Shown here in pieces: positions 9,158 to 62,368 of a DNA stretch of 64,000 nt. Origin of the DNA: Patescibacteria group bacterium (GTDB taxonomy: Bacteria > Patescibacteriota > JAHJAL01); assembly GCA_049322675.1 (NCBI GenBank), contig JBMORM010000009.1, positions 16,934 through 80,933 on the forward strand, written 5' to 3'. The translations under genes and the position numbers were made by a program. Under the pieces are notes generated by a model. That model was given only the letters and a program-made list of their open reading frames with translations, searched no databases and was not told where the DNA came from. Within the stretch, counting starts at the first letter, position 1, and every line of letters starts with the position of its first letter.

Positions 9158-10434
9158 TAGCCGAGACGATTTTTGATTTCTTGTACCGAATAATCCCAAT
9201 CGATAACGTCTTGAACTCCGGTTTTCATATCGCGAATGATGATGGTATTGTCTATGGCTTCTTTTTGGCCAATAATAACTGCAAAACGTGCCTGCATTTT
9301 GTTGGCTGCTTTAAGTTGAGAGGTGATGCTTTTTTTGTTTAGACTAGAAGATACTTTTAATCCGGCTCCTCTCAATTCGTGTAATAATTTGAAACATTTT
9401 TTCTTGGCTTCATTGCCTAGTTGAATCAAGAATACTTCCGGGATAATTGATATTTTTGGTAAAGATATATTTTGGGAAATCATTTTTAAAACTACCCGTT
9501 CCATGCCGATCCCAACACCTATGGCTGGGGTAGCTTCTTCACCAAACATGCCAATCAGATCGTCATAACGGCCACCGGCGGCAATAGTGAGATTGTCATC
9601 GGTAGAAATAAATTCAAAGACAGTTTTGGTGTAATAATCCAATCCCCGTACCAATTTTGGATTTAGGATATATGGAATATCCAATTCATCAAGGTATTCA
9701 AGCAGCTCATAGAAATGTTTCTTGGCCTCATCGTCAATATTATCGATTAGTTGAGGGGCTTCTGCAGCTATTTTTTGACAATTTTTTTCTTTACAATCTA
9801 GGATGCGGAGAGGATTTTTCTTTAGACGTTGCAGACAATCTTCGCAGAGTTGATTTTTGTATGGCGTGAAATAGTCCACCAATAGACTTACTAGCTTTTT
9901 GCGACTGGTGGAATTGCCAATGGTGTTTATGTGTAAATTGACGTCTTTGAGTCCCAGTTTGGAGAATAATTGCCAAACTAGACTGATAATTTCTGCATCG
10001 GCTGAGGAACTTTGCATGCCTATTTGTTCCAGGTCAAGCTGATGGAACTCTCTTACTCGACCGGCTTGAGGTTTGTTGTAACGAAAAACAGCTCCGTGAG
10101 TGTAAAGTTTGATTGGTTTGGGTAAGTTTTTTAGGCCGTGTTGGACATAGGCACGAACAATTCCGGCGGTAAATTCTGGTCGTAATACCAATTTTTCACT
10201 GACTTCTTTCTTTTTTTCGAGATAATACATTTCTTTGGAAACAATATCAGATGTTTCCCCGGCGGTACGTACGTACAAATCTTCGGCTTCAACCATAGGC
10301 GTGTCAATGCGAGAGTAACCGGAAAAAAAAGCAATCTCTTCGAACGTTTTGATAAGATATTGCCAGTGTGGCTGATTGATTGGCAATATATCGTGCATTC
10401 CTTTGGGGGCTTGAACTTTGATTTTTTTAGACAT
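9157..10434 (-). CDS. hisS: Histidyl-tRNA synthetase
   Basis: Class II motifs, GMHDILP N-terminus, anticodon-binding C-terminus. Confidence 0.9.
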   Translation of the reverse strand: MSKKIKVQAPKGMHDILPINQPHWQYLIKTFEEIAFFSGYSRIDTPMVEAEDLYVRTAGETSDIVSKEMYYLEKKKEVSEKLVLRPEFTAGIVRAYVQHGLKNLPKPIKLYTHGAVFRYNKPQAGRVREFHQLDLEQIGMQSSSADAEIISLVWQLFSKLGLKDVNLHINTIGNSTSRKKLVSLLVDYFTPYKNQLCEDCLQRLKKNPLRILDCKEKNCQKIAAEAPQLIDNIDDEAKKHFYELLEYLDELDIPYILNPKLVRGLDYYTKTVFEFISTDDNLTIAAGGRYDDLIGMFGEEATPAIGVGIGMERVVLKMISQNISLPKISIIPEVFLIQLGNEAKKKCFKLLHELRGAGLKVSSSLNKKSITSQLKAANKMQARFAVIIGQKEAIDNTIIIRDMKTGVQDVIDWDYSVQEIKNRLG

Positions 10435-38293: not shown

Positions 38294-38824
38294 CTATACG
38301 GCTGGTTTTTGGTCTTTAATGGCATTTAAAACATTGACTAGGCCTCGAATATTACCTGCCAAGACGTTGACAAAACCTGAGATTGGCGAATTGATGCTTC
38401 CTACCAGCTTGGCGTATAATTCTTCTTTGGAAGGCATGGTCGCTAGTTCGATTACTTGCGGTTTGGGGATAAACTGACCGTTGTAAATTCCACCGATTAT
38501 TTCAACTTTGTCTACATTGGCTGCAAAGTCATGAATTGTTTTAGGACCGTTTATTTCGTCATCAAAACTAAAAACCAAATTAACAGCTCCGTCCATGGAA
38601 AAATCAGGCGGTAAAACTAATTTGTTTTTCTCAAGAATCTTTCTGAGAATGGTTTTTTTAGGAACTGCATATTTGCAATTGTTTTTAACCATTTTTTTTC
38701 TTAGTTCAACCATTTGTTCGGCGTTGATGCCTTTATTGACTGTAATGACTACTGATTTGCTCCTAGAAAAATGATTATCAATTTTTTGTAATGACTCTTC
38801 TTTTTGTGCTCTAGTTTTTGGCAT
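38294..38824 (-). CDS. rplJ: 50S ribosomal protein L10
   Basis: L10 family sequence. Confidence 0.9.
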   Translation of the reverse strand: MPKTRAQKEESLQKIDNHFSRSKSVVITVNKGINAEQMVELRKKMVKNNCKYAVPKKTILRKILEKNKLVLPPDFSMDGAVNLVFSFDDEINGPKTIHDFAANVDKVEIIGGIYNGQFIPKPQVIELATMPSKEELYAKLVGSINSPISGFVNVLAGNIRGLVNVLNAIKDQKPAV

Positions 38825-38861
38825 ATATTTTTATCTTTTTAACGTAAATAAATATCGACCA

Positions 38862-38904
38862 ATAAAAAAACCTTGTTTCTCAAGACAATTGAACAAACAA
38901 GGTT
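38862..38904 (-). terminator. Intrinsic terminator (10-bp stem aaccttgttt/aaacaaggtt, 16-nt loop, T7 run) after the beta-propeller gene, upstream of rplJ
   Basis: Read directly. Confidence 0.5.
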
Positions 38905-39031
38905 ATTGTTTTATAACTATGGATTGTTCCTAGGTTGGCAATTTGAAGATATTTAAGAGCTTTCGCTCGCCAACTGTCTTGGGAAAAATGATTGTAATGT
39001 TATTTTACCAAATAGATTTGTTTTGTCAAAA

Positions 39032-41065
39032 TTACTTGATATCTAGTTTGCCCAATTCCTCCCAGGAATTTTCATCATAAACTTTAATTTTATCATCACC
39101 GATAATATACAAATTGTCGTTGATATATATTGCACGTCGAGCAGAAATGTCGCTGATAGCTTTACTTAGAACCAATTTATTGTTTTTATAGGAAAAAATA
39201 TAACCGCTGTTGGATCCCGGCAGGAAAAATAGTTGGTGTTTGTCATCCAACATAAAAGCATGGTAGTTATTGAGGATATCCGACCAATACTCTTTTAGAT
39301 TGTATTTGTCGATCTCGGTTGGATTTCTGGGATCACTAATATCAAACAAAGATACTTTGACGTTACTATCTTCTTTACCAATGCCCAAGATCAATTTGTC
39401 GGAAATTGGGTGGAGATAAGATGAATAACCGGGAATTTTTAACTCACCGGTTTTTTGGGGATTGGAAGGATTTGATAAATCTAAAACATAGAAAGGATCG
39501 GTTTCTTTAAATGTGACAACATAACCTTGATTGGAAAGAAAACGAACGGAGTAAATTCTCTCCCCTACTCCCAAATCCTTTATGCTGCCGGTGGTTTTTA
39601 AATTATTATCAAGGACATAAACGTCATTGACCGATTCCAAGTTTGATGATGAAAAAGGAAACGACCAAAAATTGCGCCCGATCGTAGTGGCAACCCGAAG
39701 ATGATCTTGATATTCATCCAGTGAAAATTGATTCAATAAAACACCGGGGACTTCTCCAATCGAATCAACTTTAAAGTCAGCTAAATTTATTTTATTGATC
39801 TGAGTTGTTGTCAGTGAGCGTTTGTTGGCTTCCAGGTATTGTTTGACTTGGTTCTCCAAATCATTTTCCAGTTTGGTTTTTTCGTCTTCAGTTAGGGTCA
39901 AAATGTAATTGCTGACGATCGAGTTGAGCTCAACTAGTTTGGCATTGTTGGATAATTCGTAGTCTTTGATTTTTTTCACTTTACTGTAAACATCCTGAGA
40001 AAATAGACTTTCGTCTTGAGAAAGAAAATCAAAGAACAAATTGGTGGGATCTGGGCTTTTTTGGTAAGTAATATATAAGTTATCTGGTGACATATAGACT
40101 ATCGATTGACCGGAGGAACCGACAAAAGACGTATTATTCATTAATTTTCCATCTTTGGGGGCGAATTTCATGATAGTATAAACTGCGTCCGAAGAAACAA
40201 TTTCTCCGGGGTGATATATTTCCTCGCAAGAAATTTTGAAATCCAAATCTGACCCGGACAAAAGAGGCATGGGGCAAACGGGAGTGGAATAAATATTGGT
40301 ACTGGCAATAATATATAGCTCGTCATTGTACGACCGAGATTGATATATTGTGCTATTGTCTTGCAATTCATATTCCCAGGACTTGGTTGGATTGACGGGA
40401 TCTTTAATGTCATAAGCGATGATTTTTGTGTTGTAGTTGAAAATAATCAGCGTATCCCCGATGAGTAACAAGTCGCCATTGGTGTCAATTTTTGATAATT
40501 CGGAAATTTTGTCAGCGGGCAGAGCGTTGATAACTCGAGTGCTTGGGGCTTGATAACCCGGGTAAGCCATATCGCTTGAGATTGCTTCTTCTCTGAAAAT
40601 CGGCACATCATAGTAATAAGATGAGGGGGAAAAGAATATTTCTTGGCCGTTGGTTTTTACAATATCTGGTTCATCAATATTAGCAACCTGAACATTGGTC
40701 GAAGAGTAACGATCGGGCGCGACAGAATCAGAAGATGCGCGAATTGGAGATGGCAAAGCATCACCCTCCATCATTTTACTGGAAGTTGGCATCATTTCCG
40801 CGCTTAACATGTTTCTGGATGAACCGAATGAATAATATGACGAGGAATTCAATTCTTGGCTTTGGGAAAAATAATTTTTGAATTCGGTATCGCTCTTAAA
40901 TTTGGCAAAAGTGGCAGGACCGGTTTGGGTTTGATAAGTTGATTCTCCGCCTGTTTTCCCGGACATATTTTGATAGTATCTCACCAAAAAAAATGCACCC
41001 AAACTACCCGCGATCAAGATAAATAGTAAAACGAAAACTAAGATTGTGATCAAGGTTTTTTTCAT
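39032..41065 (-). CDS. Secreted or membrane-anchored beta-propeller-like protein, hypothetical
   Basis: N-terminal TM/signal; Ser/Tyr-rich N region; repetitive beta-strand-like C-terminal 450 aa. Confidence 0.5.
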   Translation of the reverse strand: MKKTLITILVFVLLFILIAGSLGAFFLVRYYQNMSGKTGGESTYQTQTGPATFAKFKSDTEFKNYFSQSQELNSSSYYSFGSSRNMLSAEMMPTSSKMMEGDALPSPIRASSDSVAPDRYSSTNVQVANIDEPDIVKTNGQEIFFSPSSYYYDVPIFREEAISSDMAYPGYQAPSTRVINALPADKISELSKIDTNGDLLLIGDTLIIFNYNTKIIAYDIKDPVNPTKSWEYELQDNSTIYQSRSYNDELYIIASTNIYSTPVCPMPLLSGSDLDFKISCEEIYHPGEIVSSDAVYTIMKFAPKDGKLMNNTSFVGSSGQSIVYMSPDNLYITYQKSPDPTNLFFDFLSQDESLFSQDVYSKVKKIKDYELSNNAKLVELNSIVSNYILTLTEDEKTKLENDLENQVKQYLEANKRSLTTTQINKINLADFKVDSIGEVPGVLLNQFSLDEYQDHLRVATTIGRNFWSFPFSSSNLESVNDVYVLDNNLKTTGSIKDLGVGERIYSVRFLSNQGYVVTFKETDPFYVLDLSNPSNPQKTGELKIPGYSSYLHPISDKLILGIGKEDSNVKVSLFDISDPRNPTEIDKYNLKEYWSDILNNYHAFMLDDKHQLFFLPGSNSGYIFSYKNNKLVLSKAISDISARRAIYINDNLYIIGDDKIKVYDENSWEELGKLDIK

Positions 41066-53057: not shown

Positions 53058-53131
53058 GGGCGATTAGCTCAGATGGTTAGAGCGCGTCACTGATAATGAC
53101 GAGGTCGGAGGTTCGATTCCCCCATCGCCCA
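53058..53131 (+). tRNA. tRNA-Ile (anticodon GAU), CCA not encoded
   Basis: Cloverleaf folded by hand; anticodon loop CTGATAA; one A-C mismatch in the T stem. Confidence 0.85.
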
Positions 53132-53135
53132 CTTT

Positions 53136-53166: not shown

Positions 53167-54441
53167 TTAAATAGTAAATTTTGTTTCAGCAAAAAATTTG
53201 GTATGACTTTGACCAAAGTATCCATTTAATTCTGCTCGATATTGCCCTCGATCCAAAGAATATTTATATTGCCAGTTGGTTGTTATTTTTCTGGTGCTCC
53301 CAGGTAAAACGTTTTCAATATCGAGATCTATTTCAGCGATTATATTATTTTTTGCATCATAAACTGTGATGGCTCCAAATGGTTTAAAATGAACATTCCC
53401 AGTATTGGAAAATTCTAATATTAATTCAATGTTGTTAGTATTTTTATTTATAGAAGAATAAAATTTTTCCACTGATCCACTTTCGGAAAGTTCACTACCG
53501 TTGACTCTGAGTAATACCAATGATCCGATCCCACTTTGTACAGCTAATTTGTTTGGATCAGAATTTTGATCTGAATTTTTAGTCATAAAAGTTAATGCAG
53601 CATAACGTCCACCGGCCTTGGCGTCTGGGGGTATACTTAAGTGAAATTTTATTTCTTTTTGACTTGCTGGTTCTAATACTATTTGAGGTGGATCAAAACT
53701 AATCCAATCTTTCATGGCATAATCTGTGTTTTTGTCTGTCATTTCCGGAACTCCATCTGAGTTTCCTTCTTTAGGTAAAAAGTTTTGAATTGATATTTCC
53801 AGCAACATAGGTTTGCTGCTAGGATTCTTTATTGTTTCAACAATAGACAATTGTTCACCTGGATTTCCCGTCAGCTCGTCAAATAATACGGGGTTGATTT
53901 TTGGCGCTTGATTAGCATAATTGGTTGGTTCATCGATTGTTTCAATGTTATTTTCTGAGCTTGAAATACTATCCCCTTCTATCCCTCGGTCAATTGTTTC
54001 AGGTTTAAGAAGTAAATATTTTATTTTTAATATATATCCTTGGCTTTCCTTTTTAGTACTATAAACAACGCCACATCTTTCAGTGTCTTGGTTAATTTTG
54101 CCACATTCTTCTGGAAGTGATGGTTCTTTATCTATTACTTTTCTATTTCCGCTCCAAAGATATTCTATGTGATTGTCAGGCGGGTAAAAACCATTGATTG
54201 TGTAATATGCTTCCAGAGCTATAGTTATTTGTTCAGTTGTTGCTTTTATTTCATGATCTTTAGCTTTGGTTTGTACTTGGGAGATATCGCTTTGTATTTT
54301 TTTACTATCCAAAGTGGGAGAAATTTTTATTAAAACAAAAATAATAATTCCTCCAATTGTCAGCAAGGACAACATTATGGCGATGATCAGAAAGTAAATA
54401 ATTTTATTTTCTGATTTGTTTTGAAAAAAATTCGTTTCCAT
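53167..54441 (-). CDS. Secreted or membrane-anchored hypothetical protein with Ig-like beta-rich regions
   Basis: N-terminal TM IIYFLIIAIMLSLLTIGGIIIFVLI. Confidence 0.5.
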   Translation of the reverse strand: METNFFQNKSENKIIYFLIIAIMLSLLTIGGIIIFVLIKISPTLDSKKIQSDISQVQTKAKDHEIKATTEQITIALEAYYTINGFYPPDNHIEYLWSGNRKVIDKEPSLPEECGKINQDTERCGVVYSTKKESQGYILKIKYLLLKPETIDRGIEGDSISSSENNIETIDEPTNYANQAPKINPVLFDELTGNPGEQLSIVETIKNPSSKPMLLEISIQNFLPKEGNSDGVPEMTDKNTDYAMKDWISFDPPQIVLEPASQKEIKFHLSIPPDAKAGGRYAALTFMTKNSDQNSDPNKLAVQSGIGSLVLLRVNGSELSESGSVEKFYSSINKNTNNIELILEFSNTGNVHFKPFGAITVYDAKNNIIAEIDLDIENVLPGSTRKITTNWQYKYSLDRGQYRAELNGYFGQSHTKFFAETKFTI

Positions 54442-54483: not shown

Positions 54484-54700
54484 TTATACTTTTGCAAGAG
54501 TTAACCACATTTTAATGACAAGAAGATTAGACCTGACAAGTGAATCACAAAATGTAAACATTTTGCATCGACCTCTAAGGTAGTTATCACTTTTTGGAGA
54601 TCATATCGTTAAAGGCTAGAAACCAGAAAACGAAAAGGTAAACCAGTTACTAGTCCTTAACAAAATGATCTCCAAACAAGGAAACTAAATAATCCCTAGA

Positions 54701-56190
<1,490 letters not shown>

Positions 56191-56314
56191 TAATAAAAAG
56201 AAAAAAAATGCGAAATGAATTGAAATTGAACAAGGTCTTTATCTTCTTGCCAATAAAATGTTGTTAAAGTTACAAAATAAATACATGATTCACATGTATT
56301 ATCTTACATGTAAT

Positions 56315-56422: not shown

Positions 56423-56965
56423 TTAGTTGAGGACATTTTCGATACACGCCCAATCACTATCTTCGTTGGCAGGAATGATGATAGTGACTTCATTGCCCGG
56501 GTTCGCTTTAAAATATGTTACAGATGCCAATAAAACATTATATTTTTTTCCATTTGCCATGACAAAGAAATGAATTCCATCTTGCTGGAGCATTCCAATG
56601 ACTGATTTTCTATCAACCGGCCCGATTTGTTTGTAAATAAACTTTCCATCCGGCATAATGGTTAGTTTTAAAATATCTCCTGCAACTAACTTTGATTTAC
56701 TGGCATAGTTTGCCGGAACAGGATATTTTTTTCCCTCGGCGTCTATCATAGTTTGACCGTCAAAAACACCTTCGATTATTTTAGCTAGCGATTGATCTGA
56801 AATTGGAATGTTATTTTCTAATGGTTCAATATTTGCTTTCGCTTCTCTAATGGATTGTATTTCTCCTCCTTCTAATTCGGAGAGAATTGACTGTGCATTT
56901 TTTAGATTAGCAGATGCGATTTCTAATAATTTCTTTACAGATTCGATTTGAACATTGGTACTCAT
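56423..56965 (-). CDS. Hypothetical protein with an N-terminal coiled coil and a C-terminal beta-rich domain; strong SD AAGGAG
   Basis: ORF plus canonical SD 7 nt upstream. Confidence 0.5.
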   Translation of the reverse strand: MSTNVQIESVKKLLEIASANLKNAQSILSELEGGEIQSIREAKANIEPLENNIPISDQSLAKIIEGVFDGQTMIDAEGKKYPVPANYASKSKLVAGDILKLTIMPDGKFIYKQIGPVDRKSVIGMLQQDGIHFFVMANGKKYNVLLASVTYFKANPGNEVTIIIPANEDSDWACIENVLN

Positions 56966-57132
56966 TTGTTTCTCCTTAGGTTTGTTTTTTATTATATTTT
57001 ATATTCTCAATATTAAGTAAATTATATATCAAGATTTTATATATGGAAAATGTACTTTTTTTACTTTAATATGACTTTAACATATATGCCATACTGTGTC
57101 AAGATTTATTATGTTTTTTTTGATTATGGGTA

Positions 57133-57161
57133 TTGACTATATTCATTTTTTTATTTATAAT
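57133..57161 (+). promoter_or_regulatory. Near-consensus sigma70 promoter TTGACT-N17-TATAAT, ~60 nt upstream of the 57220 ATG
   Basis: Hexamers and spacer counted directly. Confidence 0.45.
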
Positions 57162-57219
57162 AGTTGGAGTGAGATAGTATTTGTGTATTATATAGTGATA
57201 GTAATATTTAAATAAAAAT

Positions 57220-57579
57220 ATGGTTGTTCTTTCGGGGTCTGATCAGATAGAAAATAATGACTTTAATCGTCAAGTTCCTACATTGGAGGGGCAGGATTTT
57301 TTGAGTCTAAATGAAAGCAAGCAACAATCCAAACCTGCTGATTTAAAGCCAAGATTTGGAGAAGGGTTAAAAGTTAATCAAAAAAAATCAGAATTGCCCG
57401 AGCGAACTATTGAAGGGTCACAAACAACTGAAAAGTCACAAACAACTCAACAGAAGAATAGTTTAACTCTAGGAAATAAGCCAATTGTTATGTTAGAGAA
57501 ACTTTACAATGATACAGCTTTTGATCCCTGCAAAGAAACTACAGAGTTAATTGAAATATTAAGAAGTTTAGATAAATAA
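57220..57579 (+). CDS. Small hydrophilic hypothetical protein (119 aa), first gene of the ATPase operon
   Basis: ORF only. Confidence 0.4.
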   Translation: MVVLSGSDQIENNDFNRQVPTLEGQDFLSLNESKQQSKPADLKPRFGEGLKVNQKKSELPERTIEGSQTTEKSQTTQQKNSLTLGNKPIVMLEKLYNDTAFDPCKETTELIEILRSLDK

Positions 57580-57606: not shown

Positions 57607-60066
57607 ATGGATTTTTTCTATTATATTGGCTTTGCTTTACTAGGCTCAGTTTTTTTATTTTTGATACTGTGGCTTGTTTTTTTGTATGTAAAAAAACACT
57701 TACGCAACCAGGAGAGTTTCAAAAAGACTCTCAATATGACTTTTTTACAGGTTAGGGTTCAAAAAGAAGCTCCTGAAGATGAAAGAAATTTAAAGCCAAA
57801 GGAAGTGATTGCCGTGGCCGAACACTTATACAATAGTTTTTATAGTATATATGCAGGTGGATGGAAAAATAAAATATTAGGAGAGCAGCATATAAGTATC
57901 GAAATTGCCACCAAAAAGGGCATGACGGATTTTTACGTTGTTATTCCCAGAAATTTGGTTGAGTTGGTGCGTAAACAAATGAATGCACAATTGCCAGATG
58001 CCATAATTGATGAAGTAGAAGGATATAATATATTCAATCCAGACTCAAAGTATGATGCTACTAGTTTGACTTTTAATAAAAATTTTATGTATCCGATTAA
58101 AACATATGATCAGATGGAATCGGATCCATTGAACAACATTACAAATGCTTTAAGCAAATTAGCAGAAGATGAAGGTGCAGCAATACAGTTTTTGATAAGA
58201 CCAATAGACAACAAGTGGCACAGGAGAGGGAAATATGCTGCTCATAATATGCAGCAAGGTAAACCAATTTTTGAGCAGAGTTGGCCGCTTAAGGTTTTAA
58301 ATTTTATTGGTCAAGCAATTACTTTTTTAATTAGTAATATTGCTAATCAGGCTACGGGTAACGAAAAGAATGTCAAAGCTGAAGATAAACCAATACAATT
58401 GACGCAGGTTCAAACAGAATTAATCAAGGCTTTGGAAGAAAAATCATCAAAAGTTGGCTTTGAAACAATGATTAGAATTATTTCTTCCTCAAGCAATGAA
58501 TTGTCTGCGAAAAGCAATATGGATAATATTTTCAGTGCCTTCAGCCAATTTTTGTCGCCTGACATGAACGGTTTTAAAAAGATTAATGACAAAAAAGAAA
58601 AAATTGTTAAGGACTATATTTTTCGAAGATTTGTCGATGATAGTAAAATGATTTTGAATACAAAGGAGTTGGCAACTGTTATTCATTTTCCTAATCAACA
58701 CGTTGATACACCAAACCTAAACTGGCTTTTGGCTAAAAGAGCACCAATGCCTCCTGACGCTCCCACACAGGGTTTGCAGCTTGGAGTAAATGTGTATCGC
58801 GGAGTGAGAAAAAATGTTTACATTGAAGATGGCGACGAAGGACGCGGAAGACATATATATAGTTTGGGCCGTACCGGTAGTGGTAAAACTCAATTTCTTT
58901 TCAGTATGATGAAGCAAGACATGGACAGTGGAAAAGGTTTTTGCGTTTTGGACCCGCATGGTGATTTGGCTGAAAAGGTTTTATATCATGTTCCAAGGGA
59001 GAGAGCGGATGACGTAATATATTTTGATCCTGGTGGCGACTTGGAGATGCCTATGGGTCTAAATCTATTTGAAGCTAGAAGTGACGAAGAAAAGGAATTG
59101 AGAGCAATGTCTGCTTTGAATATAATGATAAAAATGTTTGGCGAAGAAATATTTAGTCCGCGTTTGCAGGACTATTTTCGCAATGGTTGTCTTACATTGA
59201 TGGCCGATGATGAAAATCCAGGGACAATTGTCGATATAGTAAACCTGTTTACGGATGAAGAATATCAACTGGAAAAGGTGGCTAAAGTAAAAAATCCGAC
59301 GGTAAAATCTTGGTGGATAAAAGTATTTGGTTCTATGGGCTCAAGAGAGAAAGAAGAAATGATCCCTTATTTTGCGGCAAAGTTCGGTCAGTTTATAACT
59401 AACGTTACTGTTCGAAACACTTTGGGGCAATCGAGATCATCTTTTAATATTCGACAAGTTATGGATGAAGGAAAAATATTGATTGCAAATCTATCAAAGG
59501 GAAAATTGGGAGAGATAAATTCAAACTTGATTGGTATGATCTTGGCTGAAGAAATCACCATGGCTGCGTTGGCTAGAACTGATCAACCAGAAGAAAACCG
59601 TCGGCCGTTTTATTTATATGTTGATGAGTTTCAAAATTTTGCGACAAAAACTTTTGCGACGATATTGTCGGAAGCCAGGAAATACAAACTAAATTTAATT
59701 ATTGCTCACCAATTTATAGACCAACTCAGTGTTAACGGCAAAGAAGAAATAAGGGATGCAGTATTTGGTAACTGCGGAACGTATATAATATTCAGAACTT
59801 CAGCTAAAGATGCGGAATTTTTAGAAAAAGAATTTATGCCGGTTTTCAATAAATCAGATATATCTAATATCGACCAGTATGTGGCATATGTAAAATTGAT
59901 GGTAAAAGGTACTGTTAGTAAGGGATTTTCTATGTCAACCGTCTATTTAAATAACCCTCATAAAGAACTTGGAGAGGCAATCAGACAATTGTCTCGTTTA
60001 AAATTTGGCAGAGAGAGAGCAGAGGTAGACGAGGATATTAGAAGGAGATTAAAATTATTAGGTTAA
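57607..60066 (+). CDS. N-terminally membrane-anchored FtsK/HerA-superfamily ATPase with type IV coupling protein (VirD4/TraG/TraD)-like motifs and an unusual ~390-aa pre-ATPase domain
   Basis: TM helix at residues 6-28; Walker A LGRTGSGKT; T4CP-like VLDPHGDL after the P-loop; ~230-aa insert; Walker B LYVDEFQNF; LIIAHQFIDQL and GNCGTYIIFR C-terminal motifs. Confidence 0.65.
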   Translation: MDFFYYIGFALLGSVFLFLILWLVFLYVKKHLRNQESFKKTLNMTFLQVRVQKEAPEDERNLKPKEVIAVAEHLYNSFYSIYAGGWKNKILGEQHISIEIATKKGMTDFYVVIPRNLVELVRKQMNAQLPDAIIDEVEGYNIFNPDSKYDATSLTFNKNFMYPIKTYDQMESDPLNNITNALSKLAEDEGAAIQFLIRPIDNKWHRRGKYAAHNMQQGKPIFEQSWPLKVLNFIGQAITFLISNIANQATGNEKNVKAEDKPIQLTQVQTELIKALEEKSSKVGFETMIRIISSSSNELSAKSNMDNIFSAFSQFLSPDMNGFKKINDKKEKIVKDYIFRRFVDDSKMILNTKELATVIHFPNQHVDTPNLNWLLAKRAPMPPDAPTQGLQLGVNVYRGVRKNVYIEDGDEGRGRHIYSLGRTGSGKTQFLFSMMKQDMDSGKGFCVLDPHGDLAEKVLYHVPRERADDVIYFDPGGDLEMPMGLNLFEARSDEEKELRAMSALNIMIKMFGEEIFSPRLQDYFRNGCLTLMADDENPGTIVDIVNLFTDEEYQLEKVAKVKNPTVKSWWIKVFGSMGSREKEEMIPYFAAKFGQFITNVTVRNTLGQSRSSFNIRQVMDEGKILIANLSKGKLGEINSNLIGMILAEEITMAALARTDQPEENRRPFYLYVDEFQNFATKTFATILSEARKYKLNLIIAHQFIDQLSVNGKEEIRDAVFGNCGTYIIFRTSAKDAEFLEKEFMPVFNKSDISNIDQYVAYVKLMVKGTVSKGFSMSTVYLNNPHKELGEAIRQLSRLKFGRERAEVDEDIRRRLKLLG

Positions 60067-60099: not shown

Positions 60100-60330
60100 A
60101 TGAAGTCAATAAACGAAAGAAATGTAGACTCTTCTCTTTCGACACTTGAAGTATTAAAAAAACAATTTTCGGAAATGATGGGAACAATTGGAAAATTACG
60201 TGAAGAAAATATGGGTCTTAAATCTATGGTTGAAGAGTTGAAGAAGAGAAATTCTATGTTAGAAAAAAATATCGAAGAAATAAGTTTGATTGCCAATTTA
60301 AGAGTTAGTAAAAATAAAAATGAAAAATAG
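60100..60330 (+). CDS. Small coiled-coil protein (76 aa)
   Basis: Heptad-like KLREENMGLKSMVEELKKRNSMLEKNIEE. Confidence 0.4.
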   Translation: MKSINERNVDSSLSTLEVLKKQFSEMMGTIGKLREENMGLKSMVEELKKRNSMLEKNIEEISLIANLRVSKNKNEK

Positions 60331-61261
60331 CAATCTTGGTTCTTTAGAGAATAATAAACATCAATTTGCTTCGGAAGCAATAAGATATGATTTTTTAAAA
60401 AAGATTTTTTTAAAACAGGCAGATTTAACTTTGGAAAAAATCGATTTTAATAAGATTAAAGAAACTTATTCTGAATATTTAATAAAGAATAATTTAGATT
60501 TAAGGTTACTTAACAAGCTAATTCCAAAAGAATTAATTGGCTTTTCTAACGTAAATAGATCAGTGGCTGAATATTCTCCATTAACCAAAGAGATAAATTA
60601 TAATCTCTCATATCCTTTGATGGATTGGTTAGTAACAAATATTCATTGCAGTCATCTTGATAGAATTTTAAAACAGGATTTAATATCTTATACTTTTCAT
60701 GAGCAATCCCATGCACTTTCCGATAACGATGGTAAAATTGGATTTGAAAAAAGAATTGATGATAGTGGAGGTTTTAGAACATACAAAAAGAATTTTGAAT
60801 TGCTAAATGAAGGTATAACAAAAAAAGTAGAAAAAGAATTACTGGATTTATACAATAAAAAAAATCAGCTGGAGGTCAATAATAAGTCTAGTCTTTTTAG
60901 AAAAATTTATAATCTAATTCTTGATGGTTATTCAACATCAAGTTTTTTAACTGATACAATTATTTCTCGAATAAGCAAACAATGCGATCTCGATCAAGAA
61001 ATAGTATGGAGAGTGATTCTAAAGGGATATTTTAACAGTATTGATTTGACTAAAAATAAATATCAAAAAGTATTTACTAATCTCTTACCGGAAAATTTTT
61101 TCCATGAATTTAAAGAAATGCAACCTTGGCCTTCGATACACCAAAAAGCCCAATTATTTGTCATGATGGGAAAAATCGCTACAAGAGCGTTGCCTTTAAG
61201 AGATAAAAAACTAATTCGAAGATGGTTTAAAATGGTGGACAATTTTGAGGAAAAAAATTGA
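60320..61261 (+). CDS. Putative gluzincin-like metallopeptidase, paralog 1 (HEQSH ... NEGITK)
   Basis: HExxH followed ~40 aa later by the NEGIT motif; a shared C-terminal block with paralog 2. Confidence 0.5.
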   Translation: MKNSNLGSLENNKHQFASEAIRYDFLKKIFLKQADLTLEKIDFNKIKETYSEYLIKNNLDLRLLNKLIPKELIGFSNVNRSVAEYSPLTKEINYNLSYPLMDWLVTNIHCSHLDRILKQDLISYTFHEQSHALSDNDGKIGFEKRIDDSGGFRTYKKNFELLNEGITKKVEKELLDLYNKKNQLEVNNKSSLFRKIYNLILDGYSTSSFLTDTIISRISKQCDLDQEIVWRVILKGYFNSIDLTKNKYQKVFTNLLPENFFHEFKEMQPWPSIHQKAQLFVMMGKIATRALPLRDKKLIRRWFKMVDNFEEKN

Positions 61262-61513: not shown

Positions 61514-62368
61514 TTGAAAGGCTTATTTGAGAAGTACCTATGCGAAGATGTCGGCATAGACAAAGACTATACAAAGAGAATCACAGGAAGATTCATCGAT
61601 AAGAAAAGATTTGAAAGTTCCAATTTGCAACATCTGCTGATGACTCCTCATCATGGAGCTTATTATAGTTTTCTTAATAAAAAAAATATACACCTCAATC
61701 CAATAGCGTTCTTCGAAAGAGGACTTATTGGGGATATAGCACGCGATCTTGGTAATGACAAATTAAAAAAACTGATAGATGATTCAATTTTACGAATTTT
61801 AATTCACGAAGAGACTCATGCTGTATCGCACGATATTTATCAAACTGAGGAACAACTCGGGAGGGAAAACACGCATTCTCTTGGATATAATATAATCACT
61901 ATTAATCGAAAGAAATTGGGAGTAGTTGAATTTTTATTTAGTAAATCGGAAAATATGTTGATAAATGAAGGGATTACGGATTTGATCGCTGACAAGATAG
62001 CCGACAAATACTATTTGAATAATAATATGGAAATTCCTCCAAGAGAAAATACAAATAAGCTTATTTATATGATAACTGGTCACGGTTATATTTCGACAAA
62101 AGAGATAATCAATGAATTAATTGATGAAATTTCAGACGAATGTCAGATTGATAAAAAAGTAATATGGGACAGATTGGTTAGGGATTATTTTGGTGGACTA
62201 GAAGGAAAAAAACAAATAATTGAAACTTTATTATCATGTTTTTCGCAGGATTTTTTGAAAAAATTTATAAAGATTAGCAATGAAAATAACTTGCGTAAAT
62301 TGATTAGAAATTATCTAATGAAGAATAAACCAATGGTTGAATGGAATGACGAGAAAAGAAAAAAATAG
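61514..62368 (+). CDS. Putative gluzincin-like metallopeptidase, paralog 2 (HEETHAVSH ... NEGITD); the ORF begins at TTG right after an in-frame TGA; the first ATG is at 61640
   Basis: HExxHxxxH plus NEGITD; aligns with 60320-61261 over the IY..GY.S..IS..C..D...W....YF block. Confidence 0.5.
   Translation: MKGLFEKYLCEDVGIDKDYTKRITGRFIDKKRFESSNLQHLLMTPHHGAYYSFLNKKNIHLNPIAFFERGLIGDIARDLGNDKLKKLIDDSILRILIHEETHAVSHDIYQTEEQLGRENTHSLGYNIITINRKKLGVVEFLFSKSENMLINEGITDLIADKIADKYYLNNNMEIPPRENTNKLIYMITGHGYISTKEIINELIDEISDECQIDKKVIWDRLVRDYFGGLEGKKQIIETLLSCFSQDFLKKFIKISNENNLRKLIRNYLMKNKPMVEWNDEKRKK

Follow-up and report, generated by a model that had tools for sequence, protein, structure and literature searches.

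A Patescibacteria-wide membrane-anchored ATPase with a predicted VirB4-like N-terminal fold and a coupling-protein-like motor

How should an ATPase be classified when its domain order resembles that of VirB4 and its motifs resemble those of type IV coupling proteins (T4CPs)? This question is raised by a gene in a 64,000-nt stretch of DNA from a Patescibacteria group bacterium (GenBank assembly GCA_049322675.1, contig JBMORM010000009.1, positions 16,934 to 80,933; hereafter the window, in whose own numbering all positions are given). The gene lies on the forward strand (57607..60066), begins with ATG and encodes a protein of 819 aa, identified from the open reading frame (ORF) call and Pfam as a DUF8128/T4CP-like ATPase (paralog A). 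An earlier note on this DNA had judged the architecture of the protein to be atypical for both VirD4 and VirB4. We found that this architecture is real but that it is not unique to the source genome, since it characterizes a phylum-wide family already present in Pfam (DUF8128). On balance, our results suggest that the protein is probably paralog A of a Patescibacteria-wide, membrane-tethered pair of ATPases that constitutes its own lineage in the VirB4/coupling-protein branch of the FtsK-HerA superfamily, with a type IV secretion system (T4SS) as the likeliest client.

The protein was initially described as carrying a single N-terminal transmembrane helix and about 390 soluble residues ahead of a Walker A motif near residue 420. 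This description proved accurate: the helix spans residues 3-28 (57613..57690, forward strand) and Walker A spans residues 421-428. A Kyte-Doolittle scan revealed one hydrophobic segment (residues ~3-28), which is also the sole hydrophobic 19-mer window kept across 66 homologues, and a helix is predicted at residues 2-42 in the AlphaFold (AF2) model. A candidate second transmembrane segment at residues 226-248 was rejected because its hydrophobicity is not kept in these 66 homologues; in the AF2 model this segment is a soluble helix beside a disordered loop. The transmembrane helix is directly followed by the basic residues KKHLRNQESFKK. By the positive-inside rule, this cluster points to an N-out/C-in topology, in which the remainder of the ATPase (residues 30-819) would be cytoplasmic.

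All five ATPase motifs, encoded like the rest of the gene on the forward strand, are invariant or nearly so across the family. The P-loop GRTGSGKT (Walker A, residues 421-428, with K427; 58867..58890) aligns with the P-loops of TrwB and DotL, and 50 diverse family members all share its residues G421, G426 and K427. It is followed by a strand and loop with the sequence VLDPHGDL (residues 447-454; 58945..58968), a T4CP-type D-x-x-G-[DE] motif that aligns to IVDPNGDM of TrwB and whose residues D449, P450, H451 and G452 are invariant in the family alignment. The Walker B region YLYVDEFQNF (residues 669-678, with YVDEF at 671-675; 59611..59640) aligns with the Walker B of both T4CPs and VirB4s, and D673 and E674 are invariant in the family. 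The C-terminal motor motifs LIIAHQFIDQL (residues 697-707) and GNCGTYIIFR (residues 721-730), together at 59695..59796, lie within the TraG-D_C match; the former region aligns to VVAGLQSTSQL of TrwB, and Q702, Q706, G721, N722 and G724 are almost invariant in the 50 members. Between the Walker motifs, the AF2 model places eight consecutive helices (residues ~493-621; 59083..59469, between K427 and D673), an all-alpha insertion that appears equivalent to the all-alpha domain of T4CPs.

We compared these positions with T4CPs and VirB4s taken from pTiC58, pCF10, pGO1, F and pCW3. In agreement with the earlier note, Walker A comes early in VirD4/TraG-type proteins (lysine 152 in VirD4, ~156 in PcfC and 198 in TraD) and near residue 430 or later in VirB4s (lysine 439 in VirB4, 471 in PrgJ, 492 in TraC and 498 in TcpF). 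The claim that VirB4s are devoid of the DPxGE motif stands for its glycine, which is present in the four T4CPs compared at this column (VirD4, TraD, PcfC and TrsK) and missing in all five VirB4 references, the glycine of TraC being one column off; it does not stand for the motif as a whole, since "DP..E" does occur in the VirB4s of MPF-FATA/FA (monoderm) systems. The claim that VirB4s do not have a large insert between the Walker motifs was wrong: this span reaches ~205 aa in PrgJ (K471 to D676), compared to 246 aa in the window ATPase, 244 aa in VirD4 and 227 aa in TraD.

The motor domain presents clear similarity to T4CPs. Three T4CP-type Pfam families matched above their gathering thresholds (GA) and together cover residues 402-740: PF10412 TrwB_AAD_bind (40.3 bits, GA 20.5, spanning residues 415-736), PF02534 T4SS-DNA_transf (36.9 bits, GA 20.1) and PF12696 TraG-D_C (34.9 bits, GA 22, residues 667-740). 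Among the 50 diverse members, TrwB_AAD_bind was matched in 49, TraG-D_C in 48, DUF87 in 47 and T4SS-DNA_transf in 30, and the VirB4-type AAA_10 was matched weakly in 12; PF03135, the family of the VirB4 N-terminal domain, was not among the 25 most often matched families. In the window ATPase itself, neither PF03135 (CagE_TrbE_VirB) nor TIGR00929 gave a match at E<=1. All NCBIfam matches were to T4CP models (TraD, VirD4-CD1115, TrbC and CedD) and all were far below cut-off, the best being SXT_TraD (45.9 bits, cut-off 366) and conju_CD1115 (44.5 bits, cut-off 250). When the family profile was searched against PDB sequences, the best match was TrwB (2.3e-7), followed by DotL (4.5e-5) and HerA (5e-4), and no VirB4 chain was found.

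Profile-profile comparisons led to the same ranking. With hhalign, profiles of 66 and 50 members were aligned to four T4CPs, five VirB4s and FtsK/TcpA. The family matched the four T4CPs with a probability of 98.7-99.0% (E 3e-16 to 4e-18, score 129-143) and the five VirB4s with a probability of 96.7-97.5% (E 4e-10 to 7e-12, score 86-99), whereas FtsK/TcpA reached 80-82% (E ~1e-5, score 51-52). The FtsK alignment comprised only 37 P-loop columns in two of three runs, and a greedy run (-mact 0.1) extended it to 249 columns with an equally low score. The ATPase was not found to be of the FtsK/SpoIIIE type: likeness of its motor is limited and it presents one transmembrane helix as opposed to several at the N-terminus. 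HerA (DUF87, PF01935) remained below threshold on the window ATPase (19.9 bits vs GA 23.2, P-loop region only), and the matches to HerA chains are consistent with kinship at the level of the superfamily only. Thus, by hhalign, Pfam, NCBIfam and PDB profiles, the motor is nearer in sequence to coupling proteins than to VirB4. The family is nevertheless remote from canonical T4CPs as judged by profile scores: its profile yields merely 2-16 bits on VirD4, PcfC and TrsK, as compared to 107 bits on a haloarchaeal "VirD4".

The earlier note had proposed placing the motor in a phylogeny. In a crude neighbor-joining tree (BLOSUM distances, 379 columns, with partial FtsK and without HerA, of which we used the shallow nodes alone), the Patescibacteria formed their own clade nested in neither canonical group, with a T4CP-like ATPase devoid of a transmembrane helix as sister (100% bootstrap). 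Its deep nodes have bootstraps <60.

We then asked what precedes this motor. The cytoplasmic N-domain (residues ~43-400; 57733..58806, forward strand) corresponds to Pfam DUF8128 and presents a predicted alpha/beta fold similar to the N-terminal domain of VirB4. It is modeled with a pLDDT mostly of 85-95 in the full-length AF2 model (overall pLDDT 86.8). Searched on its own, as the earlier note had advised, the domain matched nothing outside DUF8128 by sequence. We also modeled residues 30-400 separately with AlphaFold (pLDDT 76) and compared this model to the PDB using Foldseek: every one of the 13 best matches was a TrwK/VirB4 chain from R388 (E 2.4e-6 to 1.5e-3, probability 0.93-1.00, TMq 0.30-0.45, ~400-430 columns), the top ones reaching E ~2e-6 and a TM-score of 0.40-0.45. 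The next matches were ~1,700-fold worse than the top (E>4e-3, TMq ~0.25). No P-loop fold (TrwB, HerA or a 4AG5-type C-terminal domain) was among the PDB matches of the N-domain, which therefore argues that the likeness concerns the N-terminal domain specific to VirB4 and not the shared motor. The full-length model was co-linear with full-length TrwK over 870-936 columns (E 1e-16 to 3e-13), with better E-values than those of TrwB, to which it aligned by the motor only (TMt 0.61-0.68). The N-terminal domain of TrwK comprises residues 15-400, mediates VirB4 dimerization and binds VirB3 as well as the tails of VirB8 (PMC9259494); at ~385 aa it is close in size to the ~360-aa DUF8128 domain, and both are located directly upstream of the motor.

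Alternatively, the N-domain could be a lineage-specific alpha/beta module unrelated to VirB4, whose ferredoxin-like beta-alpha-beta units would resemble it by convergence, in which case the protein would be a T4CP-type ATPase with an unusual adaptor. Several results agree with this possibility: sequence similarity to VirB4 was not found even between profiles (with a VirB4 profile of five sequences), the TM-scores are borderline, and the lower-ranked fold matches are generic alpha+beta proteins (BBE oxidases, chlorite dismutase, ACT and Csy4). However, convergence does not readily account for the fact that the 13 best matches are exclusively VirB4 chains over ~400 columns at high probability without any P-loop fold among them, nor for the agreement in size and position with the VirB4 domain (PMC9259494). 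We regard this explanation as unlikely, yet the most credible of the alternatives. The combination of VirB4-like domain order and T4CP-like motifs that was originally proposed is thus supported by the predicted fold of the N-domain (TrwK/VirB4) on one side and by motor scores that favor T4CPs on the other. No canonical VirB4 or canonical T4CP was found to align cleanly along the whole protein, a result that would have spoken against an atypical architecture.

Could the protein simply be a highly divergent VirB4, acting as the assembly or energizing ATPase of a T4SS or a pilus, with a motor that merely scores better with T4CP models? Like TrwK, PrgJ, TrsE and TraC, it presents an N-terminal domain of ~400 aa ahead of a RecA-like ATPase that contains a helical insertion; its length falls within theirs (819 aa vs 789-875 aa), its Walker A is located near the same residues (430-500), its motor is detectably homologous (~97% with hhalign), and TrwK is the sole strong PDB match of the N-domain model. 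The built-in N-terminal transmembrane helix is also reminiscent of VirB3-VirB4 fusions. That these exist is noted in a recent survey of Patescibacteria (PMC12102498). Unlike VirB4s, however, the ATPase has an N-domain without sequence similarity to theirs, is not matched by VirB4 hidden Markov models and carries a motor nearer to T4CPs; in Patescibacteria, it is not encoded with VirB2, VirB3, VirB6 and VirB8, and no genes for VirB3, VirB6 or VirB8 were found nearby in the window and in four related loci. In addition, Patescibacteria carry a separate bona fide VirB4 within their T4SS cluster (PMC12102498), represented by SEML1_0008 in Southlakia epibionticum.

Relatives outside Patescibacteria bear on the same question. 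The two-domain architecture was also identified in Priestia and Pontibacillus replicons and in plasmids and prophages of Clostridium botulinum/sporogenes. The Clostridial protein (annotated "ATP-binding protein", 800 aa) matches the N-domain with an hhalign probability of 97.7% (E 1.8e-12) and its motor scores 82 bits with the family profile; PF26449, the accession of DUF8128, is found on some members. The architecture is the same as in Patescibacteria, and an N-terminal transmembrane helix was not noted there. The Clostridial gene (14489-17289 in L006; around 10001 in L096 and L097) follows, with a 4-nt overlap, a gene for a TrbC/VirB2-like pilin of 133-143 aa, an arrangement that agrees with a true VirB4. 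A ParM-like gene also precedes it, and the setting is one of phage tail, lysis and replication modules: no other T4SS genes were found near the pilin and ATPase pair, which sits in a phage or phage-plasmid backbone. We considered this family as a bridge to VirB4 and rejected it, as it is small (~30 clusters), carries PF26449 only and is without VirB4 annotation. Taken together, these results make a true VirB4 very improbable.

The family itself is phylum-wide in Patescibacteria by sequence and is not peculiar to the source genome. Searching with the full-length protein recovered >1,700 homologues of 800-850 aa at E<=1e-3, which places the ORF well beyond chance expectation, and all the named ones belong to Patescibacteria (Doudna-, Peregrini- and Gracilibacteria, among others). 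The best 120 homologues (E=0 to 1e-212) measure 727-878 aa, barring two shortened ones, and PF26449 and T4CP domains are precomputed on all of them; for the window protein, the DUF8128 match was read from P0001, which is 99% identical, and its relatives. A profile of the N-domain (residues 30-400), searched against 1.84 billion proteins, recovered 4,557 cluster representatives (50% identity). A HerA/T4CP-type ATPase begins right after the N-domain in six of the seven longer members that were scanned, some with long C-terminal extensions; no family was found in the seventh (P0199, 1,706 aa). A scan of one genome per GTDB species extended the family to >588 species with labels including Doudna-, Peregrini-/Peri-, Gracili-, Berkel-, Kerfeld-, Moran-, Uhr- and Parcubacteria. 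In five loci labeled Gracilibacteria (L045, L060, L079, L082 and L089), translation table 11 breaks the ATPase into several short ORFs, a pattern that fits UGA recoding (code 25) better than pseudogenes.

The family includes a second paralog, which often lies in tandem with the first. Paralog B is ~900-1,100 aa long, is 36-38% identical to paralog A with an equal architecture, and is found 0.05-2 kb downstream of A in at least 10 loci; no B copy was found in the window. The A and B copies are each monophyletic and sisters in the neighbor-joining tree, where the window protein falls into the A clade (100% bootstrap).

The genomic context of the gene argues against a mobile element. The window is a low-GC chromosomal stretch with neighbors such as rpmE, a P-type ATPase, ClpC, RelA, NusA and ProRS, and the GC content of the ATPase gene matches its surroundings. 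In four distant relatives, the gene is located among genes for ribosomal proteins, SecY, RF1 and DnaX, and no T4SS gene was found within 10 kb, judging by the recorded Pfam matches of their called genes. No relaxase, integrase or mating pair formation (Mpf) gene was found within ~7 kb upstream and 4 kb downstream of the ATPase gene (to the window end). Likewise, relaxase or other DNA transfer and replication (Dtr) genes and Mpf genes were not detected in the ten flanking ORFs or in the ten largest other ORFs of the window, small ORFs not all having been scanned, and they are absent from the recurrent neighbor families of 85 related loci. The synteny is kept across classes. In Patescibacteria, the ATPase is apparently vertically inherited.

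These observations leave almost no room for a conventional VirD4-type coupling protein that belongs to an integrated conjugative or mobilizable element. Similarities to TrwB (R388) and TraD-type T4CPs are extensive: the nucleotide-binding domain (NBD) is homologous, and its elements follow one another as they do in T4CPs (Walker A, D-x-x-G-[DE], all-alpha insertion, Walker B and a Q-containing motif); the distance between the Walker motifs is similar (246 aa vs 227-244 aa); and there is a membrane anchor at the N-terminus. In contrast to T4CPs, which present two or more transmembrane helices directly before the NBD, the ATPase has a single one and a folded cytoplasmic domain of ~360 aa before the NBD (a spacer of 390 aa in all), which moves the Walker A lysine to K427 vs K136-198. 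It fits none of the five architectures recognized in a review of T4CPs, which treats the NBD as the family-defining motif (PMC7434980). Its gene is chromosomal, phylum-wide and present as two paralogs, without linkage to relaxase or Mpf genes and with housekeeping genes alone around it in the four related loci; its GC content matches the genome, and all T4CP equivalog cut-offs are missed. We consider this explanation effectively refuted.

What is found next to the gene instead is a set of partners of its own. Neighbor counts were obtained by calling ORFs in the 85 loci and clustering them, and the dominant order was a small ORF (104-191 aa), ATPase A, a partner gene that we call F1, and then DnaX, GtrA or a second ATPase. 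In most of the 85 loci, the small ORF immediately precedes the ATPase gene and shares its strand; in the window it encodes a hydrophilic protein of 119 aa and ends 27 nt upstream of the ATPase gene (57220..57579, forward strand). Its position is kept while its sequence is fast-evolving. No transmembrane helix was predicted in it. The small ORFs could not be aligned overall and were rejected as one homologous family across lineages; one sub-family (f8) shares a C-terminal helical motif. F1 represents the most conserved neighbor family: it was found in 35 of the 85 loci, in 20 of them directly downstream of the ATPase gene on the same strand, and it lies between paralogs A and B in some lineages. 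F1 proteins range from ~170 to 240 aa. The F1 gene of the window (180 aa; 56423..56965, reverse strand) is inverted and divergently transcribed, likewise in an 81%-identical relative (L001). Its alignment contains an invariant core (G.F.G...NY.SKSK...GD..KL...G....KQI), and sequence and profile searches returned no Pfam, NCBIfam or PDB assignment. The F1 profile aligned at chance level (E 0.46) to DotY, a protein that belongs as a subunit to the type IV coupling complex of Legionella, over a stretch including the conserved core ...EG.F.G...SKSKLVEGD.LK. A protein of ~342 aa with a helix-turn-helix similar to sigma-70 region 4 is encoded between F1 and paralog B in L039, L044, L049 (about 9300-10350) and L074.

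The published record places these genes in a broader frame. Among 3,035 Patescibacteria genomes, Quinonero-Coronel et al. (2025, PMC12102498) reported 2,918 with VirD4-type homologues. These homologues number 5,713, only 148 of them are near virB4, and the authors raised the possibility of exaptation. The survey does not describe the architecture of these homologues. Their number, ~2 per genome, matches the A/B pair of paralogs, and proteins built of a transmembrane helix, DUF8128 and a T4CP motor are most likely among them, judging from their Pfam T4CP hits. In S. epibionticum, the one member of Patescibacteria for which transposon sequencing data exist, Wang et al. (2023, PMC10633639) described an essential T4SS cluster without a recognizable coupling protein. 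Two ATPases of this species have a P-loop domain that starts near residue 360-400: SEML1_0142 (1,019 aa, preceded by a small ORF), which is essential by transposon sequencing, and SEML1_0293 (921 aa, PF10412 at 402-719), which is non-essential (PMC10633639). The family is on record as Pfam DUF8128 and under the NCBI name "T4SS DNA-binding domain-containing protein", and the term "DUF8128" was not found in the searchable literature. As far as this literature shows, the VirB4-like N-domain, the pair of paralogs and the F1 partner are undescribed.

Considering these data, the motor might also work independently of any T4SS. It would then be an autonomous membrane-anchored pump for DNA or protein (in DNA uptake or export, or envelope biogenesis) that uses its own module only and was exapted from the coupling protein of a mobile element. 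The gene never adjoins T4SS genes in the Patescibacteria loci examined, it has conserved partners of its own (the small ORF, F1 and paralog B), the survey authors themselves raise exaptation, and the Clostridial members reside in prophage or phage-plasmid backbones without a T4SS. The nearest relatives of the motor are T4CP-like ATPases of plasmids and integrated elements that have neither transmembrane helix nor DUF8128, some of them beside large serine recombinases. The closest one, a 395-aa ATPase of a Sulfitobacter plasmid (WP_259956255), is 34% identical and scores 303 bits with the family profile; others on IMG/VR contigs (L099-L107) are 35-44% identical. These motor-only proteins measure 395-582 aa (L009 9920-11107, L100 7878-9626, L101 7860-9230), and a serine recombinase gene is nearby in both contexts examined (the Sulfitobacter plasmid L009 and the predicted-viral L100). 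On the other hand, even in ordinary systems the gene for the coupling protein frequently lies apart from virB4 (PMC12102498), and the T4SS of Patescibacteria would otherwise be left without a coupling ATPase (PMC10633639). We regard an autonomous pump as a serious alternative, albeit an unlikely one, slightly more so than an N-domain unrelated to VirB4. A role as a replacement of FtsK was set aside: ftsK is reportedly mentioned in two transcriptome papers on TM7x, and a replacement is then probably not needed.

Several observations weigh against a membrane-tethered pair that serves a T4SS. No T4SS linkage of the ATPase gene was found at any Patescibacteria locus examined, and more genomes carry T4CP-like genes than carry VirB4 (2,918 vs 2,417; PMC12102498), a hint that the role may be independent of a T4SS. 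As modeled, the N-domain resembles VirB4 at the level of the fold only (TMq 0.40-0.45): hhalign returned no signal between the N-domain and the VirB4 N-terminal domain (P 0.16-0.6), whether against single VirB4 and PrgJ sequences or, with profiles of 66 and 50 members, against a shallow alignment of five VirB4s or of their N-terminal domains. The curated NCBIfam T4CP equivalog cut-offs were missed widely (25-46 bits vs 250-800), and the deep nodes of the neighbor-joining tree have bootstraps <60. Finally, the window ATPase could not be assigned as an ortholog of either SEML1_0142 or SEML1_0293. The context clues conflict: the small upstream ORF resembles the arrangement of SEML1_0141-0142, whereas the sigma factor gene SEML1_0294 directly upstream of SEML1_0293, as before B in tandem loci, and the ~190-aa gene downstream of SEML1_0293, which resembles F1, point to the other.

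We nevertheless favor the membrane-tethered pair with a T4SS client, and homology to known systems suggests how it could operate. Like TrwB and TrwK, the ATPase may form a ring on the membrane's inner face. Oligomerization and docking toward membrane partners would fall to the N-domain, as in VirB4, and the built-in transmembrane helix could stand in for VirB3. ATP hydrolysis in the T4CP-like motor would engage or drive a macromolecular substrate, either DNA or protein, and F1 and the small upstream protein may serve as adaptors. The likeliest client would be the chromosomal T4SS or pilus apparatus of Patescibacteria, which is encoded elsewhere and is without its own coupling protein.

The remainder of the locus presents several additional features. 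The divergent intergenic region between F1 and the small ORF (56966..57219) contains promoter-like sites in both directions, TTGACT-17-TATAAT on the forward strand (57133-57161) and TTGACA-17-TAAAGT on the reverse strand (57102-57074). Both are consensus matches alone, and such sites are no more numerous in this region than in shuffled sequence. Downstream of the ATPase gene, a 76-aa ORF (60100-60330) has no similarity to the 76-aa family found downstream in other loci. It is followed by two paralogous ORFs on the forward strand, of 313 aa (60320-61261) and 284 aa (61514-62368), which are 24% identical over 104 aa (E 4e-12). They carry the HExxH motifs HEQSH and HEETH and occupy a stretch of 28% GC between the ATPase gene and rpmE; no Pfam or NCBIfam match was found for them. 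Both are missing from the syntenic L001 locus, where rpmE directly follows the ATPase gene, and the pair has the appearance of an insertion specific to this lineage, made up of putative metallopeptidase-like genes.

A complete 16S rRNA gene (54700-56197, reverse strand, 1,462 bits) is located 1.4 kb from the ATPase gene. It accounts for the local peak of GC content (0.43), and ORFs called inside it (e.g., 55639-55947) are spurious. A tRNA-Ile(GAT) gene (53058-53132) is found on the strand opposite to the 16S gene, no match to 23S rRNA was detected anywhere in the window, and the rRNA genes appear to be unlinked. Between the tRNA and 16S genes, an ORF of 424 aa (53167-54441, reverse strand) presents weak sub-threshold matches to a WxL-interacting peptidoglycan-binding domain and to the ETX/MTX2 aerolysin-like toxin family, suggesting that its product may be a surface or pore-forming protein. 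Further away, a ribosomal protein L10 leader RNA (Rfam RF00557, 65 bits; 38855-39001, reverse strand) was identified downstream of a beta-propeller ORF (39032-41065, reverse strand) and just upstream of a 176-aa ORF (38294-38824).

Patescibacteria account for much of the diversity of bacteria and have a lifestyle of attachment to other cells, and their abundant, unlinked T4CP homologues have so far been unexplained. The fixed architecture of the ATPase, its pair of paralogs and its partner gene lead to testable hypotheses on what energizes or feeds secretion in these organisms. DUF8128 ATPases are also a candidate evolutionary link from VirB4 to coupling proteins. A more speculative and rather doubtful extension is that they constitute a third ancient lineage of T4SS-type ATPases, a living intermediate by which coupling proteins would have arisen from a VirB4-like ancestor through loss of the N-domain, and that A and B together with F1 and the small proteins would form an undescribed membrane translocation module with at least one component essential for epibiotic growth. 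On the practical side, these results may improve the annotation of thousands of genes and provide targets in the genetically tractable Southlakia.

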